Shown piece by piece: positions 10,018 through 20,068 of a stretch of 33,395 bases of DNA. The DNA comes from an uncultured archaeon (GTDB taxonomy: Archaea > Asgardarchaeota > Thorarchaeia > Thorarchaeales > Thorarchaeaceae), in the NCBI GenBank assembly GCA_964610875.1, contig CAZSWP010000039.1, positions 1 to 33,395 on the forward strand, in the 5' to 3' direction. A program made the translations under genes and the position numbers. The stretch's first letter is position 1. Each line of letters opens with the position of its first letter. A model generated the notes under the pieces. That model saw nothing but the letters and a program-made list of their open reading frames with translations. It had not been told where the DNA came from and ran no database searches.

Positions 10018-10413
10018 CTAGAATCTTCTTGAACTGCTATTGTGAACTTCAGCTGACATATCAACTTCTGTCTTCACTTCATCTATCGATTCTTCAGCAG
10101 TAGCAATAGAACCATACTTTCCTAATTGAAGTCTTAGATTATTCCTGAAGAGACCTGTGTATCCATTTGTAAGGATGTAGGTTTCGCCTTCTTTTATGGA
10201 TTCGATAGTTTCGTTCCAAATAGGCATTATGACAGTTGCTGTGGAATCGCCAACTACTGCATCCACTACACGGTATGTTTCATCATCCTTTCTTGATTTC
10301 ACTTCTCTTTCTTCACTGGTGCTTATGACCTTGAAGGTAACTTTGACACTTTTCATTCCGGGTTTAAGCTCATCAATTGTAGCCTCGATGGGCTCAGATT
10401 TATTATCAATCAT
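10018..10413 (-). CDS. Single OB-fold ssDNA-binding protein (SSB/RPA-like)
   Basis: IDELKPGMKSV.VTFKV, VGDSTA, IWNE, NGYTGLFRNNLRLQLGKYG. Confidence 0.9.
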   Translation of the reverse strand: MIDNKSEPIEATIDELKPGMKSVKVTFKVISTSEEREVKSRKDDETYRVVDAVVGDSTATVIMPIWNETIESIKEGETYILTNGYTGLFRNNLRLQLGKYGSIATAEESIDEVKTEVDMSAEVHNSSSRRF

Positions 10414-11066: not shown

Positions 11067-12323
11067 TCACTCCTTCCGGTAATACGCTAAAATGACCAGC
11101 GAAATTGTCCCAACTATAATTATTGTTAGTAAAATCGAGCAATCAGAATCATCCCAATCCTCTGAAAAATCAAAAGCTGAAATAGCCTCATTCCAAAATG
11201 GAGCATTCTCATCTCCAGAGAGAGTTGTAATCAGTACATCGTCATTGTTGTTCGGTTCTCCAAATTCAAAAATACTAAATCCGGTGATACTGTGCTCTCT
11301 CCCATACTGGATCTTCTTGACAATCTCTTCTGCTACCTGCTGTTCGGTCCAATCTTCATCCTCCCATACTCCCGAGTACCATCCCACTCCCATGAAGACT
11401 CGGTCAACAACATCATTGGGAAATGTGTTCCAGATATCCACTTCTCCTTTCCACCAGCTCGTTTCGTAGCAATATTCCATCGAGATGTGGAAATCCAAAC
11501 CCATGTCGGACAACCACATTACTGGATCTTGCTGAACACCAAAACATGTTGGATATCCGTTATAGTCGTAACCTTCCTTTGCCCACCGATTGATGGGATT
11601 GGCTTCAAATTCCTCAAACCATTCATTGTACCATTCAGGTAATTCATCTTGAGGTGTCCGAATTTCTCCTGAGAGCGGCCAACCTGCGGTGGTAAGGAAT
11701 TTATCTGGTACTTGAGAATTCATTCTAGCTTTCGTTTCTCTAATGAGCTCGCTGATTGCATCCATCTTTGTTTCATTGACAGGTTCTAGCTCCTCTGTAC
11801 GAAGATAATCGAAATGGATTCCATCCAATTGAGGATAGGTGTTCAATAGAGAAATTGCCCAATCGACCTGCTCTGAACGTTCAGTATCATTAGTGAAGTC
11901 AGCGATGTGTCCTACTCGTCTGTATAGATTAGCCACCCAAACATGCACACTCACTCCAACTTTATTCAGTGCATCAAGTGTTATTGCGAAGTCATCTTTG
12001 CCGGACCAACCTTTGTTATCTTCAATTGGTGGGGCAATAAGGAAGACTGTGTTCAGATTGGCTGCTTGCATCTTAGATATTGTGGCATTTCTTGCAGCAA
12101 TGCTATTGAAAGCGTAGTCATTAAGCCATACTGCACGTGTTTCTACTAGTAAACCTGAATCTTCCATTGAAATCATGTTAGAGAAAAAGCATCCTTGGTT
12201 GAGAAAAAGTACTAGTATAATGAAGTGTGTCATCAACTTGCTCTGAAAGGCTGAATTTCTGATCTCCATTGTTGTTATACTAACAATGATTCGAATTAAA
12301 AATCCTAGTCTCATAGTGCACAA
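11067..12323 (-). CDS. Membrane-anchored glycoside hydrolase-like family 10 (GHL10/YddW-like) protein
   Basis: ETRAVWL, ANLNTVF, VHVWV, LDGIHFDYLR; C-terminal TM. The true start is probably downstream of 12323. Confidence 0.82.
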   Translation of the reverse strand: MCTMRLGFLIRIIVSITTMEIRNSAFQSKLMTHFIILVLFLNQGCFFSNMISMEDSGLLVETRAVWLNDYAFNSIAARNATISKMQAANLNTVFLIAPPIEDNKGWSGKDDFAITLDALNKVGVSVHVWVANLYRRVGHIADFTNDTERSEQVDWAISLLNTYPQLDGIHFDYLRTEELEPVNETKMDAISELIRETKARMNSQVPDKFLTTAGWPLSGEIRTPQDELPEWYNEWFEEFEANPINRWAKEGYDYNGYPTCFGVQQDPVMWLSDMGLDFHISMEYCYETSWWKGEVDIWNTFPNDVVDRVFMGVGWYSGVWEDEDWTEQQVAEEIVKKIQYGREHSITGFSIFEFGEPNNNDDVLITTLSGDENAPFWNEAISAFDFSEDWDDSDCSILLTIIIVGTISLVILAYYRKE

Positions 12324-12355: not shown

Positions 12356-12715
12356 TCATCTAAGGTGTTTATTGTCAATATACCTACCTGCATGAGGTAC
12401 CGCAAAAACAAACACAATGATATACCAAATCAATACGATCACTGCAACTGCAATCCATGAGGGATTGCCTGGGTCTACAACTCCAATACACGCTTCCAAA
12501 GTGTATTGTCCAAACAACAAAATCAGAATGGGAAGTAAAATGAAAATAACTAGAATCACTGTCTTCATCAATAGTTTTCTGAATACATCTATATTCATCT
12601 TGACGGTGTATTCTGAATTATCGTCATTCACTTCAAAGACCCCCATATCTGATTGCGAACCTGTCTTCAGAGTCAGAAAGAATTGTTTTAGGGACAAGAT
12701 GAAATTTCCGGGCAT
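12356..12715 (-). CDS. Small two-TM membrane protein
   Basis: Two hydrophobic helices; divergent from the 12789 precursor gene. Start uncertain. Confidence 0.6.
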   Translation of the reverse strand: MPGNFILSLKQFFLTLKTGSQSDMGVFEVNDDNSEYTVKMNIDVFRKLLMKTVILVIFILLPILILLFGQYTLEACIGVVDPGNPSWIAVAVIVLIWYIIVFVFAVPHAGRYIDNKHLR

Positions 12716-12788
12716 AAAATTTATTTATGCATCTAAAAATGGAAAATCAGACAAAATGTAGTTTTGTCTAGTGGATTGTGATTGGGGA

Positions 12789-13787
12789 ATGTATAAACAG
12801 TCTAAAATGAAAATATTGGTTCTCTACATAGTTCTTCCATTGATATTATTTACAATTGCACAGCCTGCAATGGCATTGATGCAAAATAACAATGATGAAA
12901 TAGAACACGCCAACATAATGACTTTAGCAAAAGTTGGACTAATGAGTAGAAGTTCAAGTGCAGATTACTACGATGTTTATCTTGGTGCCAAGGACGCATT
13001 TGATACCTACAACGATTTCTATGGTGATCATAGTAGCTCTCTAAATATGCCAATTGAAATAAAAAGTGCCGTTGGTAGTTTAGCTACAATATCAAAATTG
13101 AAATCCTATCTTAGTACTACTGATAGAGTACATATCAGTAGTCATGGCGAATGGAGTAGTTATGGACCTATAATTGATATGTACGGAAATGAGTTGACAG
13201 TCACTAATGTCAACTACTGGACCGCAATAAACAGCAACTGCTATGTGGTATTCCTTTCCACATGTTATTCATTAGGTCGTGGAGATGGTGATGTAAGCAC
13301 AGTATTGGCAAACGCAATCAAACAAAAGACATCTGTACGATTGGTGCTGGGATACTCTGGAGAAGTCGAACTCAGTGCTGCTGTATTTTTAGCAATGAAT
13401 TTCTGGTGGGAACACATTGCAGGATTGCGAGTTACAGGGAGTTATGGTGGGCGTAGCGGCGAATCGTCGTTTAGCAGAGCCAGATATTTGCTGACCAAAG
13501 CTATCGATGATCTTGAAGATAGTTTTGGTGTAGGAGCAAGTGTACTTGGTGGTTTGATTGGCGGTTGGATATTCGGTCCTCTTGGAGGCATTGCTGGCGC
13601 TGTGTTTGGTGAATTATTAGGAGACATTCTTGGTAATGCCATGAGTGAAGCAGCGTTTGGTGAATGGATACAAGCTTGGGAAGATGCATATGATGCTTTT
13701 AGAAAAGTAGATGATGGCGAGTATGTTCCAAGTTTGACGCCTGTATATTCGGGTGGCGGGAAAAACTACGTTGTCACAATAGATTAA
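12789..13787 (+). CDS. Secreted caspase/CHAT-fold protein with C-terminal glycine zipper
   Basis: Signal peptide; VHISSHG and VFLSTCYS His/Cys dyad; LVLGYSGEV; tail GVGASVLGGLIGGWIFGPLGGIAGAVFGELLG. Confidence 0.75.
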   Translation: MYKQSKMKILVLYIVLPLILFTIAQPAMALMQNNNDEIEHANIMTLAKVGLMSRSSSADYYDVYLGAKDAFDTYNDFYGDHSSSLNMPIEIKSAVGSLATISKLKSYLSTTDRVHISSHGEWSSYGPIIDMYGNELTVTNVNYWTAINSNCYVVFLSTCYSLGRGDGDVSTVLANAIKQKTSVRLVLGYSGEVELSAAVFLAMNFWWEHIAGLRVTGSYGGRSGESSFSRARYLLTKAIDDLEDSFGVGASVLGGLIGGWIFGPLGGIAGAVFGELLGDILGNAMSEAAFGEWIQAWEDAYDAFRKVDDGEYVPSLTPVYSGGGKNYVVTID

Positions 13788-13812
13788 GGGGGAACTAATC
13801 CCCCTCTTTTTT
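13787..13812 (+). terminator. Hairpin plus U-tract after the precursor gene
   Basis: AGGGGGA-actaa-TCCCCCT followed by CTTTTTT. Confidence 0.75.
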
Positions 13813-13828
13813 CTTGAGGTCGAAAGTC

Positions 13829-15157
13829 ATGATACAAAAAAGGATTATTGTTCTCTCGCTAATAATTCTATTATCAATCACAAGTATCAATACATCCTTT
13901 GAAGTATCATCTCTATCCACAATGCTTGATATTAGTACCGAATTCAGTCAATCTCTGCATACTATTACAAGAAAACAAGCTTTGCTAGATTATTTAGACG
14001 CTTTGTATATACCTGAAGAAGGGGCATTCTATGGCTATCTGAAAGATTGGCCCACAGACATTAGAATTGAGTCATGTCATTCAATATTCGACGTTTATTA
14101 CCCTTTTCAGATTTTTTCATATCTTGACCATGAAGATGTGTTTGATTGGAGTAACTCTACAAGTTTCTTGCTTGGTCTGACTAACGATGAAATTGTTCAT
14201 GATATATACGGTCCAATAAATGCCTCCGTAGTTACACCATGTTCAGTAATTACAAGTAGAGTGGCTGTAGAATTATTTTCTGAATTATATATTGATGATG
14301 AACTTGACATCACAGCGATTAAGGGGTTTGTCAGAGATTGTCAAGGCTCATCGGGTGGTTTCACATTAGGTATTTGGGATGAAACTGAGGAGGATTTGAT
14401 ATCCACACAATGTGGACTTTATACAATGAGATATCTAGAGTCCATTAATCAAATTGATGTAGAATCATCTTTGAATTTTATACTCTCCTGTTATTCTGAT
14501 GGAGGATTTTCTTATACTCCAGATAGTGACGTTGATATTTCCGCAACTCCGCTTGGTCTTCTTTCTCTGATTTACTTGGACAAACTTGAACAAATCGATA
14601 TTGATGATACTGTATCATTTGTATTTTCAAATTTCAATAATGAATCAGGATTTTTTCCAGATGGGACACTGGTAGATACTGAAAGAATTGTATGGTCATT
14701 ATATTTGTTAGATGCATTAGATGCATTGAATAAGGCGGCAGTAATAGAATGGGTTCTCTCTTGTCAATCTGTTTCTCACGGTGCGTTTTTGCCTTATCCT
14801 GGTGCTGACTCCATTGATGAGAGATTAGAATGGACTAGGGCTGCTCTTCATATTCTTTATTTTCTCGATGAAATGGATGTTTTAGATGATGAGTTTACTG
14901 TTCTTGAATATCCCCAACATACTATTCCAGAGGGTTACTATGATTTTATCGAAGAAAATATTGGAACAAGTACTATACCAAATGTGCCATGGAATCCATT
15001 ACCTCGCATAGATATTCTTAGTGTCATTTCCAATTTTGCTCCCACACTCACAATAATCGGTATAATTCTTCTACCAATTGGCTACATCTACTATTCTGAC
15101 CGAAAAAAACGAGAACAAAGAATACTAGAGAAAAAAAGAAGGAAGAAACGGCTATGA
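13829..15157 (+). CDS. Secreted, membrane-anchored prenyltransferase/squalene-cyclase (PFTB) repeat protein
   Basis: Repeats FVRDCQGSSGGF, FILSCYSDGGF, WVLSCQ...GAF; N-terminal signal; C-terminal TM and K/R-rich tail. Confidence 0.85.
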   Translation: MIQKRIIVLSLIILLSITSINTSFEVSSLSTMLDISTEFSQSLHTITRKQALLDYLDALYIPEEGAFYGYLKDWPTDIRIESCHSIFDVYYPFQIFSYLDHEDVFDWSNSTSFLLGLTNDEIVHDIYGPINASVVTPCSVITSRVAVELFSELYIDDELDITAIKGFVRDCQGSSGGFTLGIWDETEEDLISTQCGLYTMRYLESINQIDVESSLNFILSCYSDGGFSYTPDSDVDISATPLGLLSLIYLDKLEQIDIDDTVSFVFSNFNNESGFFPDGTLVDTERIVWSLYLLDALDALNKAAVIEWVLSCQSVSHGAFLPYPGADSIDERLEWTRAALHILYFLDEMDVLDDEFTVLEYPQHTIPEGYYDFIEENIGTSTIPNVPWNPLPRIDILSVISNFAPTLTIIGIILLPIGYIYYSDRKKREQRILEKKRRKKRL

Positions 15158-15263
15158 GTATTTTATTGAATTATGACAAACCCTGTCATGTATTTGAAAA
15201 TCCAACGATGAATGTAAGTAGGAGTTTCTATAAACATAACCATGACAAGTGAAGGTGAAATAA

Positions 15264-15689
15264 TTGCAGATAATATTTGTCTATACTTTAGCATTTCTTG
15301 TAATCACATTGCTGCTTGTTCTAGCACCATTTTATGTTTTACAGATTGCAGAAAAAAGAACATACGCATTTAGAATTAAATTCGAAAAGGGCGAAATCCC
15401 CTTAGATTCAAATGAACTACCATTCCTTCTGAGGTTATATGGTAATTATATCGAATCGAAGAAAAACATCGCAATTCTGAATTTTGCTGGATTAATATAT
15501 ATATATTTCATCTCATACATTATTCTTGGGATACTTGGAGCTGATATCTCATATATGTATAGCATCATTTTTCTTTTTCTTATCGCAATTTCACTTCATA
15601 TCATTTTCAAACGTCCTGATGAAACTCGTGGATTAGGAATTTCATGGATGAAAGGTATTAAGAAATTGAAAGAAATGGGAAAACGGTAG
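15264..15689 (+). CDS. Small three-TM membrane protein
   Basis: TTG start after GAAGGTGA; three hydrophobic segments and a basic C-terminus. Confidence 0.7.
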   Translation: MQIIFVYTLAFLVITLLLVLAPFYVLQIAEKRTYAFRIKFEKGEIPLDSNELPFLLRLYGNYIESKKNIAILNFAGLIYIYFISYIILGILGADISYMYSIIFLFLIAISLHIIFKRPDETRGLGISWMKGIKKLKEMGKR

Positions 15690-19218: not shown

Positions 19219-19686
19219 CTAATAACGTCTGCCGCCACTACGACTTCTGCCGCCATAGCTCCTGCTGCCACGTCGATCTCTACCACCGCCGCCATAACTA
19301 CGACGACGAGGTCTCTCATGTGTTTCAGCAGACATGTCGTTTTCAGTATCGACTTCTTCAATATCACTATCTGTATCCTTGAGTTCTCCATATCTTCCGA
19401 TATTGAGTCTTAGGTTACCTTTGAACAGACCTGTGTATCCATTCTCAAGTTGATAGGTTTCTCCAATCTCTACTTGGTCAATCTTGCCATCCCATAATGG
19501 GACTGCTACTGTACCAGTTGTATCACCGACTATTGCTTCTGCAATACGGTGTGTAGAATCATCTCGTCTTGATGTGACTTCACGTTCTTCTCCTAGTTCC
19601 ATGACCTTGAAAGTAATGGATAGGTTTTTCATTTGTGGCCTAAGTTCAGCCACTGTTGCCTCAATGGGCTCTCTTTCGTAACTCAT
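19219..19686 (-). CDS. Single OB-fold SSB/RPA-like protein with Arg/Gly-rich tail
   Basis: Paralog of 10018-10413 (VGDTTG, LWD, NGYTGLFKGNLRLNIGRYG) with tail RRSYGGGGRDRRGSRSYGGRSRSGGRRY. Confidence 0.9.
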   Translation of the reverse strand: MSYEREPIEATVAELRPQMKNLSITFKVMELGEEREVTSRRDDSTHRIAEAIVGDTTGTVAVPLWDGKIDQVEIGETYQLENGYTGLFKGNLRLNIGRYGELKDTDSDIEEVDTENDMSAETHERPRRRSYGGGGRDRRGSRSYGGRSRSGGRRY

Positions 19687-20068
19687 GTGTATCACTCAGT
19701 TATGCCTAAGCATAATTGATTGCAGGCTGCGAAAAAAAGGCGAAATTGTCTGGGGGAGTATGAATGTGGTTTCCAATCAGGAACTCGTTCTAAAAAAACG
19801 CATCTTGCTTCTATATCCTGCACCTACTCATCAGTTATGGACCCTTATAGAGATGTGCATTCAGCAGTCTAATATCACTAAGCGGAATTGAATAATAGAA
19901 AAGACTCTAAGAAGAGAAAAGGTCGAAATGTACAAAGGAATCTCACAATAAGAAACCATTTGTACGGGGTGTGGAAGTTCTTTCAATAAAAACCAACTTA
20001 ATTTAAGAAGATAGTTATCGATTCCAAGATACAATCAAATCTGGAGCCAACAGAAGGGGTTGAACTAA

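Follow-up and report, generated by a model that had tools for sequence, protein, structure and literature searches.

Two adjacent genes of an uncultured Thorarchaeaceae archaeon, here called gene A and gene B, are best explained as a conserved two-gene operon that encodes a resident cell-surface protease and a toroid-shaped binding partner, a reading to which we give a probability of about 0.5. The locus comprises positions 12,356 to 15,689 of contig CAZSWP010000039.1 (assembly GCA_964610875.1), within a stretch of 33,395 nt (the window) that belongs to a 3.75-Mb, 95%-complete genome. The sequence features named in a preliminary description of the locus were all found where it had placed them, and its impression of an AT-richer region was borne out by a GC content of 0.362 against a genome mean of 0.407 (sd 0.022), corresponding to the 2.3rd percentile. 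This low value is due to gene B (0.353) and to a downstream gene for a protein of 141 aa (0.312), whereas gene A is average (0.399). The following features were distinguished:

12356..12715, minus strand: protein of 119 aa with three hydrophobic segments (open reading frame and hydrophobicity), divergent from gene A and outside the conserved cassette
12789..13787, plus strand: gene A, CHAT-family (caspase-fold) cysteine protease, predicted to be membrane-pinned and outward-facing (homologues, profile, AF2 model)
12810..12878, plus strand: N-terminal hydrophobic helix of gene A, residues 14–36 (conservation and model)
12924..13532, plus strand: CHAT/caspase-fold core of gene A, residues 52–254 (AF2 model, structure matches)
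13530..13640, plus strand: Gly-rich hydrophobic segment of gene A, residues 254–290, probably a membrane-inserted helical hairpin (sequence)
13647..13784, plus strand: conserved C-terminal segment of gene A (conservation, model)
13787..13813, plus strand: intergenic G/C hairpin and T-rich run between genes A and B, terminator-like or attenuator-like
13814..15157, plus strand: gene B, 447-aa prenyltransferase-beta-like alpha/alpha toroid (profile matches)
15264..15689, plus strand: protein of 141 aa with three hydrophobic segments (open reading frame and hydrophobicity), outside the conserved cassette

In the Thorarchaeia, 17 of 19 loci have gene B downstream of gene A on one strand, the two being separated by −8 to 49 nt. 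A-like and B-like genes of very divergent sequence are also neighbours in three further genomes, which represent two other families of the phylum; one of these pairs has the reverse order. The pairwise identities of the two proteins are correlated (r 0.74; Mantel 0 of 2000), and the two genes co-evolve. The recurrent linkage of gene A to a prenyltransferase-repeat gene is thus confirmed. The cassette is present in 13 of the 85 genomes of the family, in one to three copies each, a patchy distribution that would fit a conflict system too. In one genome gene B is retained with a gene A reduced to a stub of 67 codons, which suggests that B may work without A.

The intergenic region contains a G5/C5 hairpin (7-bp G/C, 13787–13805) followed by a T-run, in agreement with the strong terminator that had been reported after gene A. 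This motif occurs at only about seven sites in the 3.75-Mb genome, five of the six others lying directly past the end of an ORF, and a comparable hairpin is found downstream of the gene A stop codon in about ten orthologous loci, with weak formal covariation. A search of Rfam returned no credible match for it, only one below-threshold match to SraG (E 0.55). In the operon proposed here, the hairpin and T-run would probably stop a share of the transcripts, leading to more A than B; no RNA run was found to contain the locus.

Across the 19 loci only A and B recur, and neither further conserved genes nor conserved defence genes were found around them. Small transmembrane genes do flank the pair at this locus, each with three hydrophobic segments, and they had been proposed to encode immunity factors. 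This role is not supported by their distribution: homologues of the 119-aa gene were found in 12 other Thorarchaeia genomes, on contigs other than that of the cassette or in genomes devoid of it, and in none of the 18 other cassette loci, while those of the 141-aa gene are present in five other genomes, likewise on contigs other than that of the cassette. The 141-aa protein itself shows no similarity to the small transmembrane genes near other cassettes.

The modelled fold identifies gene A as a cysteine protease of the CHAT (caspase-fold) type, and its His-Gly/Cys dyad is intact. The protein is 332 aa long when read from the ATG at 12789, a start with which the N-termini of the homologues agree, or 338 aa from an alternative GTG at 12771, from which residues are numbered here. 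The dyad consists of His125-Gly126 (13143–13148) and Cys165 (13263–13265; codons checked), and is kept in 18 of 18 close genomic homologues, its His being kept in three of four distant copies. An AF2 model, built from 29 homologues by a method that takes no account of membranes, reached a pLDDT of 78.5, with values above 90 in the core (residues 52–254), and places His125-Gly126 after strand 119–123 and Cys165 after strand 159–163. Structural comparison with VIA-align matched this model to SAVED-CHAT (8tl0) with a Z of 16.0 (rmsd 2.7 Å over 182 residues), to the periplasmic CHAT of DdvA (8rw5) with a Z of 13.7 and to separase with a Z of 13, and gave Z values of 10–15 for gingipain, DdvA, separase, Csx29, legumain, metacaspase and caspases; Foldseek against CHAT and caspase-fold structures yielded an E of 4e-7. 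At the profile level, ten of the 29 family members match Pfam CHAT (PF12770) at E below 0.1, the best with 3.8e-12 (46.7 bits). Relatives P0021, P0025, P0006, P0018 and P0007 score 46.7 to 25.2 bits, and the protein of this locus 11.4 bits (E 0.22; gathering threshold 24 bits). Because the Pfam matches in ten of the 29 members coincide with fold matches of Z 16 to 10, the dyad in caspase/CHAT spacing described earlier is not a product of chance. The family comprises 25 cluster representatives among 1.8 billion and, in the databases searched, is confined to Thorarchaeia and a small number of further Asgard lineages.

Like the known CHAT proteases (PF12770, clan CD; SAVED-CHAT 8tl0, separase, Csx29/TPR-CHAT and DdvA 8rw5), gene A has the caspase-haemoglobinase fold (Z 16–11), with His-Gly past one strand and Cys past the next, and several of its relatives match the profile. 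On the other hand, it is a small protein of about 330 aa, devoid of TPR, SAVED or other sensor domains. It is also set apart by its N-terminal membrane helix and by a Gly-rich hydrophobic hairpin, which according to the model lies within the fold, as well as by the conserved Gly-run tail at its end and by the pairing with a prenyltransferase-like toroid. To our knowledge, no such hairpin insertion occurs in other CHAT proteases.

The N-terminus of gene A, earlier described as a signal peptide, does have this character, with a Lys-rich stretch followed by a hydrophobic segment of 22 residues. The helix (residues 6–37 in the model) carries a conserved Y-x-x-L-P-L motif, of which Y19, P23 and L24 are invariant in the close homologues and LPL is retained family-wide. 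It is predicted to act as a signal-anchor or signal peptide, with an N-in orientation according to the positive-inside rule. From this topology and the model, the catalytic domain would face outward and lie on the membrane, with the N-terminal helix as one anchor and, as the other, a glycine-zipper hairpin that interrupts the fold immediately ahead of its last helix and strand. The CHAT of DdvA is extracytoplasmic too and offers a precedent for such a location (PMC11506125).

The GxxxG-rich segment that had been noticed after the dyad is present as well, its repeats running from G261 to G288 in this copy. As a sequence, GxxxG is loosely conserved; the hydrophobic character is conserved, the homologues having one or two hydrophobic windows of 19 residues at this segment, and glycine-zipper membrane families gave weak profile matches. 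Within gene A, both conservation and model confidence are lowest in this segment (pLDDT about 50). It is followed by a helix (293–309) and a strand (310–313), modelled together at a pLDDT of about 90, and then by a tail motif and a run of Gly; the protein closes with a short hydrophobic peptide. The tail, G-E-Y-V-P-S-L-T-P plus the Gly run, is invariant in the closest homologues and still discernible throughout the family, its pattern being present in 18 copies; residues G316, E317, Y318, V319, S321, T323, P324 and V325 are invariant in the close homologues, and the C-terminal 45 residues rank among the best-conserved parts of the protein. Over residues 301–320 the pLDDT is 94 and 89, the alignments of the model to its targets extend to residues 314–336, and those to separase, caspase-7 and metacaspase-9 reach the C-terminal ends of these proteins. 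Since the segment after the zipper is modelled confidently back into the protease fold, the zipper is probably a membrane hairpin internal to a resident protease, as opposed to a releasable peptide. In the best-matching relative, the Pfam CHAT profile is nearly spent ahead of the hydrophobic segment, having reached position 284 of 289, so that the position of the last strand after the zipper comes from the AF2 model alone. If the segment formed a single span instead of a hairpin, the conserved tail would be cytoplasmic and the packing in the model wrong.

These results bear on the mechanism put forward in the preliminary description, in which gene A would be secreted as a precursor and set free a glycine-zipper archaeocin by self-cleavage, gene B would modify or bind the product and the small membrane proteins would provide immunity. 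An intact protease dyad does stand beside a true GxxxG zipper in this copy, and the combination of a clan-CD-type protease and a glycine zipper in one polypeptide recalls the autoprocessing cysteine proteases of MARTX and polymorphic toxins and the glycine-zipper bacteriocins. However, gene A has no variable C-terminal toxin module and the cassette no conserved immunity gene, and where variable C-termini had been expected the tail is conserved and not polymorphic. The zipper, expected to be released as C-terminal cargo, is internal to the modelled fold: it is the least conserved element, and its neighbours on both sides are conserved and form part of the protease in the model. The conservation of the N-terminal helix is that of a functional anchor. 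Other circumstances favouring a toxin are an attenuator-like hairpin downstream of gene A, a feature of many operons that begin with the precursor, the patchy, multi-copy distribution typical of conflict genes and the mild AT-richness of the region. Against these, the flanking transmembrane genes show no linkage to the cassette. Of the PADLOC models, none fits A, B or the 141-aa gene, and for the 119-aa gene there is only a weak match to a 2-TM membrane protein (E 0.031). No viral copies of the cassette were found, and prenyl transfer would require a Zn-ligand Cys that is missing from gene B and a His that is probably missing as well. A self-releasing archaeocin is therefore considered improbable. 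A polymorphic or self-processing toxin locus likewise found no support, the C-terminal part being conserved and no immunity gene being recurrently linked among the 19 loci.

The resemblance to DdvA raises another option, namely a surface sensor or abortive-defence switch, in which an outside signal bound by B would trigger autoproteolysis of the CHAT domain, and the zipper hairpin, once freed, would form oligomers that make the membrane of the cell itself permeable. For DdvA, an anti-sigma factor with a periplasmic CHAT, autoproteolysis in response to a signal has been proposed (PMC11506125), and the structural likeness to this extracytoplasmic domain (Z 13.7) and the accessory, patchy, multi-copy nature of the cassette agree with such a switch. 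Nevertheless, we regard it as highly unlikely, given that A and B have no cytoplasmic output domain, no known defence model is matched, no conserved defence genes are located nearby and no phage association was seen.

According to its profile matches, gene B (start at TTG 13814 or ATG 13829) is an alpha/alpha toroid built of prenyltransferase-beta repeats. It scores 63.2 bits against Pfam Prenyltrans (PF00432; E 3.5e-17, cut-off 26.5), and a PDB profile search retrieved RabGGTase beta (5e-26) and GGTase-I beta (1.7e-8). Hydrophobic segments are located at residues 4 and 399: the former is signal-like, and the latter belongs to a C-terminal TM helix (about 15011–15091) that is followed by a Lys/Arg-rich tail, which upholds the previous reading as a secreted, membrane-anchored PFTB-repeat protein. 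Judged by these segments, gene B would face outward on its C-terminal anchor. The Q-x-x-x-G-G-F helical-hairpin repeats are shared with the beta subunits of RabGGTase/GGTase-II, GGTase-I and FTase (PF00432), which differ from gene B in lacking a signal-like N-terminus and a C-terminal anchor, in their zinc ligands and in having an alpha subunit where gene B has a protease as partner. The VDTCYSFW motif of GGTase-I beta aligns in register with v-e-t-e-r-l-v-W of gene B, so that the Zn-ligand Cys is replaced by Glu290 (14681–14683), and by our own extension of this alignment the Zn-ligand His appears to be Arg337. No invariant Cys or His was found at the zinc-ligand positions among 16 family members, nor was there an above-cut-off match to the PPTA alpha subunit (PF01239) in the 95%-complete genome, its weak matches being as in control prokaryotes. 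Because the Cys is Glu and the His apparently Arg, canonical prenyl transfer by gene B is unlikely; of the earlier suggestion that B modifies or binds the product of gene A, modification by prenyl transfer is thus improbable, and binding of A is plausible.

The conserved motifs D/E-T-E-R and E-R-x-E, with the invariant Arg291 and Arg337, are located where prenyltransferases bind zinc and diphosphate. Toroids related to this fold include glycosidases and terpene cyclases. Gene B could accordingly be an (alpha/alpha)6-barrel enzyme whose conserved carboxylates act on a glycan or an isoprenoid diphosphate, with gene A serving only as its maturation protease or chaperone. Beyond the shared repeat, however, gene B resembles none of the glycosidase or cyclase families, and we give this possibility little credence.

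The end of gene B has a conserved juxtamembrane Pro-x-[IV]-D-I, then the TM helix and a basic tail of 20 residues, an arrangement resembling a tripartite sorting signal. This leads to the possibility of a sorting or anchoring pair, in which gene A, like GPI8/PIGK or PorU, would remove the C-terminal anchor of gene B, the latter being cargo that is shed or moved to a surface lipid or glycan. Like the caspase-fold transpeptidases (PIGK/GPI8, 8imy_K and 7w72_K; legumain-type ligases; PorU of type IX secretion), gene A would be a membrane-tethered, extracytoplasmic Cys/His fold (Z 10–11), with matches to PIGK of the GPI transamidase (Z 10.2–10.5; 10.5 for 8imy_K) and to legumains (Z 10–11). CHAT proteases clearly outscore these, with Z values of 12–16, and no other GPI-T or T9SS subunit is encoded nearby. 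The strict one-to-one, co-evolving pairing of A and B and the failure to detect the exosortase/archaeosortase family (PF09721) in the 95%-complete genome would agree with sorting, whereas the basic tail is long for a sorting signal, one genome has B with A reduced to a stub, and the absence of the cassette from most genomes of the family means that it cannot be a general sorting machine. Overall, a sorting pair appears unlikely. We hold it a little less likely that the pair forms an archaeal surface-anchoring or shedding machine, with A as a transpeptidase on the anchor of B, and B possibly bearing an isoprenoid; Asgard archaea would then have a counterpart of the "lipid plus protease" logic of the eukaryotic GPI-transamidase or CaaX type. 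By analogy with the way in which prenyltransferases hold the CaaX tail, a variant is that the toroid may capture the Gly-linked C-terminal peptide of gene A.

In the preferred reading, that of a resident surface protease with a binding partner, the toroid would be displayed outward and serve as a subunit for binding or regulation. Its ligand would be an isoprenoid, a glycan or a peptide, the flexible, Gly-linked C-terminal peptide of gene A being one candidate. The protease would cleave a juxtamembrane target, possibly gene B itself or its own tail.

A literature search found no paper on the A–B cassette. CHAT/separase-type proteases and prenyltransferase beta subunits are hallmark eukaryotic machines whose prokaryotic roots are poorly understood, and the Asgard cassette couples small, predicted outward-facing versions of both in one conserved operon. 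In a published BLAST survey, homologues of Rab geranylgeranyltransferase were not found in Asgard archaea (PMC10933270). If the cassette is a surface processing or anchoring system, it would represent a new kind of archaeal envelope biogenesis, and could give context to how toroid recognition of peptides and lipids arose before protein prenylation. If it is only a niche protease, it would still provide a new membrane-embedded architecture of the CHAT family, and a false archaeocin lead would have been removed.

The stretch flagged in the preliminary description carries four genes, of which a candidate CHAT/caspase-fold protease gene (A) and a downstream gene for a prenyltransferase-beta-like toroid protein (B) form the pair referred to here as the cassette. 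All the sequence features listed in that description (hydrophobic N-terminus, His/Cys dyad, GxxxG segment, hairpin with T-run, PFTB-repeat gene and small transmembrane (TM) genes) are present. Their positions are as follows, with residues of A counted from the GTG at 12771:

12356-12715, minus strand: 119-aa protein with three hydrophobic segments
12789-13787, plus strand (alternative GTG start at 12771): gene A, CHAT-type protein
13143-13148, plus strand: His125-Gly126 of the catalytic dyad of A (codons checked)
13263-13265, plus strand: Cys165 of the catalytic dyad of A (codons checked)
G261 to G288 of A, plus strand: GxxxG run, read from the sequence
13787-13805: 7-bp G/C hairpin followed by a T-run, between the A stop codon and the B start
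13814-15157, plus strand: gene B, prenyltransferase-repeat protein
15264-15689, plus strand: 141-aa protein with three hydrophobic segments

The impression that the region is AT-richer holds for the region as a whole (GC 0.362 versus a genome mean of 0.407, sd 0.022; 2.3rd percentile) and is mild; it is caused by B and the 141-aa gene and does not extend to A itself (0.399). The cassette has surface-protein genes as neighbours: a 418-aa protein with hydrophobic segments at its N- and C-terminus and no Pfam match (11067-12323, minus strand), and one of 1062 aa that contains cadherin-like and Ig-like domains (PF17803, PF17963, PF17892; 15909-19097, plus strand). This surface-protein gene block of ~9 kb is flanked by a paralogous pair of SSB-like OB-fold genes (PF21473, 56% identical; 10018-10413 and 19219-19695, both minus strand), and in another locus, L037, a third SSB-like relative precedes the cassette by ~5 kb. 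Two DNA sequencing runs from one microbial-mat study contain the locus; no RNA run is among those listed.

The N-terminus of A consists of Lys residues followed by a 22-residue hydrophobic helix. At 11.4 bits (E 0.22) the protein encoded in the window falls short of the Pfam threshold for CHAT, while CHAT was matched by 10 of the 29 aligned family members, the best at 46.7 bits. The family is small: it forms seven clusters at 90% identity, and a set of 1.8 billion proteins contained 25 of its representatives at 50% identity. An AlphaFold (AF2) model built with seven sequences reached a pLDDT of 40; with 29 sequences it reached 78.5, with the core above 90. Comparison of the latter by Foldseek and VIA-align with caspase, CHAT and gingipain folds, as had been suggested for 12789-13787, gave matches at Z 10-16: SAVED-CHAT 8tl0 (Z 16.0, rmsd 2.7 Å over 182 residues), gingipain RgpB (15.3), the periplasmic CHAT domain of DdvA (13.7), separase (about 13), Csx29 (12), and legumain, metacaspase, PIGK and caspases (10-11). 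In the model His125 comes after strand 119-123 and Cys165 after strand 159-163, matching a caspase-type fold, and the dyad residues are retained in all 18 close genomic copies. These structural matches, together with the placement and conservation of the dyad, confirm the central observation of the preliminary description: A is a CHAT-type caspase-fold protein with an intact His/Cys dyad and a predicted protease. Other searches were less informative. The A profile found among PDB sequences only a compositional match to an MscS membrane region (E 0.08), NCBIfam gave nothing beyond a weak, below-cut-off pdsO match (E 0.0044), and the ESM Atlas returned unnamed clusters. Fused or longer forms were looked for, which is weak evidence, and none was found apart from P0025, a 460-aa family member carrying an extra domain of ~130 residues after the Gly run, where the others end.

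A toxin precursor would be expected to vary at its C-terminus, and this expectation is contradicted by the tail of A. The motif G-E-Y-V-P-S-L-T-P is invariant among the closest homologues, and across the family the tail repeats a pattern of motif, Gly run and short hydrophobic peptide with an aromatic or acidic last residue; the least conserved part is the Gly-rich hydrophobic stretch itself, the glycine zipper (residues 254-290). Model confidence is ~50 across the zipper and rises to 94 and 89 at residues 301-320, a segment covering helix 293-309 together with strand 310-313. The alignments to known structures span about residue 49 to 314-336 and extend to the C-terminal ends of separase (2120), caspase-7 (303) and metacaspase-9 (325), and we read the modelled tail as supplying the last elements of the protease fold. 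In the best-matching relative the Pfam CHAT profile is nearly exhausted ahead of the zipper (position 284 of 289), and searching Pfam with the last 50 residues of nine A copies brought up no CHAT signal, so that sequence alone does not confirm the tail as the last strand. Within the N-terminal helix Y19, P23 and L24 are conserved, as is seldom the case in signal peptides that are cleaved off, and in the homologues one or two 19-residue hydrophobic windows fall at the zipper. Given the non-variable C-terminus, the position of the tail within the fold as modelled by AF2, which takes no account of membranes, and the conserved N-terminal helix, the zipper probably serves as a membrane hairpin within the protein, not as cargo. 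If it were a single span, the tail of A would be cytoplasmic.

The small TM genes beside the cassette had been proposed as immunity factors, and this role is not supported, as neither gene is recurrently linked to it. The 119-aa gene has homologues in 12 other genomes and the 141-aa gene in five, in both cases on non-cassette contigs or in cassette-free genomes, and neither resembles the small TM genes near other cassettes. Of A, B and the two small TM genes, PADLOC matched just the 119-aa gene, weakly, to a 2-TM membrane protein (E 0.031); for this gene NCBIfam likewise returned only a weak, below-cut-off ElxI1 match (E 0.26). A self-processing archaeocin, as first proposed, has the dyad and the GxxxG segment in its favour, and with a constant tail and unlinked flanking genes we regard it as quite unlikely. 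A surface sensor or abortive switch resembling DdvA (PMC11506125) draws on the match to the CHAT domain of that protein and, with PADLOC silent on both A and B, seems very improbable.

B matches Pfam Prenyltrans (E 3.5e-17), and its family profile matches, by way of the repeat units, RabGGTase beta (5e-26) and, in register, GGTase-I beta (1.7e-8). The in-register alignment pairs V-D-T-C-Y-S-F-W of GGTase-I beta with v-e-t-e-r-l-v-W of B, which places Glu290 at the position of the zinc-ligand Cys; from a manual extension of the alignment, Arg337 may correspond to the ligand His. Neither Cys nor His occupies the zinc positions in any of 16 family members, whose invariant residues include Arg52, Gln177, Gly-Gly-Phe 181-183, Cys226, Arg291, Gln318 and Arg337. 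By sequence, B is thus a predicted prenyltransferase-beta-like toroid without the zinc-ligand Cys. Two other assignments were ruled out: a thioester (TED) domain, as the C-G-E-Q motif is absent, and a LanC-like cyclase, as the invariant residues do not include the Cys/Cys/His set. A PPTA alpha subunit was searched for in the window's genome, with no match over the cut-off, and one paper reported that BLAST found no RabGGTase homologues in Asgard archaea (PMC10933270). Toroids of B type are related to that subunit at the level of the repeats, but have a predicted outward orientation and no zinc-ligand Cys. A reading in which B is the actual enzyme and A serves to mature it we consider distinctly doubtful. 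The N-terminus of B is signal-like, and a TM helix near its C-terminus is followed by a tail of 20 residues rich in Lys and Arg, so by the positive-inside rule its toroid should face outward, as should the CHAT domain of A. Two of the five toroid proteins of B type in the window's genome adjoin an A-type gene. The anchor of B could also be the target of A in a dedicated sortase- or transamidase-like pair, an unlikely arrangement in our view.

The association of A with a PFTB-repeat partner, noticed at a single locus, recurs. Matches were found in 20 of 400 genomes of the phylum and, within the window's family, in 13 of 85 other genomes (one to three copies each); the genome of the window itself carries a further, divergent cassette on a different contig. 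When all ORFs of 19 fetched loci were clustered, A was present in 18 and B in 17, the exceptions being contig ends, and no other gene family recurred. B lies immediately downstream of A on the same strand, the two being separated by -8 to 49 nt. In two other families of the phylum, three highly diverged A-like genes likewise have a diverged B-like gene next to them, in one case with B preceding A. Across cassettes, the pairwise identities of A track those of B (r 0.74; as high in 0 of 2000 permutations), so paralogous cassettes keep matched partners. A and B are strictly adjacent and co-evolving. No relatives were found in viral contigs or, with the sequence patterns used, in JGI metagenome contigs.

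Some cassettes are broken. In L061:3440-3660 (G317:C49) an N-terminal stub of 67 codons is all that is left of A; it leads directly into the conserved hairpin with its T-run, and B downstream is intact, a state that suggests a clean deletion within the protease gene. Frameshifts split both genes in L049:7609-10061 (G320:C33), A into 217 + 132 aa and B into 116 + 332 aa, and A in L048:9026-9987 (G347:C64), into 86 + 244 aa; these two cassettes are either decaying or assembly errors.

The terminator described after A is upheld by its recurrence, though folding statistics are weak. A G/C hairpin with T-run follows the A stop codon in about ten orthologous loci, where the stems differ in sequence and each still self-pairs, and the motif is rare in the window's genome (about seven sites). 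The other G4-6/C4-6 sites there are C17:52039, C20:7804, C23:14736 and, on the minus strand, C35:9436, C49:17739 and C68:421; five of these six lie within about 35 nt of an ORF end (including pyruvate phosphate dikinase-like and solute-binding-protein-like ORFs), and no long ORF precedes the C23 site. Hairpin-type terminators seem to serve a few genes in this archaeon. Folding energy was no better than that of shuffles (z -0.74), RNAalifold covariation was weak and Rfam gave nothing credible, so the support comes from recurrence and rarity. The hairpin may be a partial terminator setting A above B in amount.

The window encodes a second membrane protein with the motif order of A, P0030 (29849-30829, minus strand), in which I-S-H-G and then L-A-C-H-S are followed by a strand-helix like residues 190-211 of A and about five hydrophobic helices. 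The family of P0030 occurs in scattered multiple copies: one related genome gave 13 matches, of which two lie no more than 6 kb from a cassette (G313:C2); hhalign of the A family against P0030 was not significant.

CHAT proteases and prenyltransferase-like toroids are already known kinds, and no description of the cassette was found in the searched literature on Asgard CHAT, caspase or geranylgeranyltransferase proteins or on CHAT with a toroid. The modelled combination of a small CHAT domain, membrane hairpin, conserved Gly-linked tail and fixed toroid partner appears to be novel. We favour, at a probability of about 0.5, a general reading in which A is a resident surface protease and B its binding or regulatory partner, or its substrate. 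A would lie flat on the membrane, held by its N-terminal helix and the zipper hairpin, with both proteins facing outward; partial termination at the hairpin would yield more A than B, and cleavage by A would take place near the membrane.
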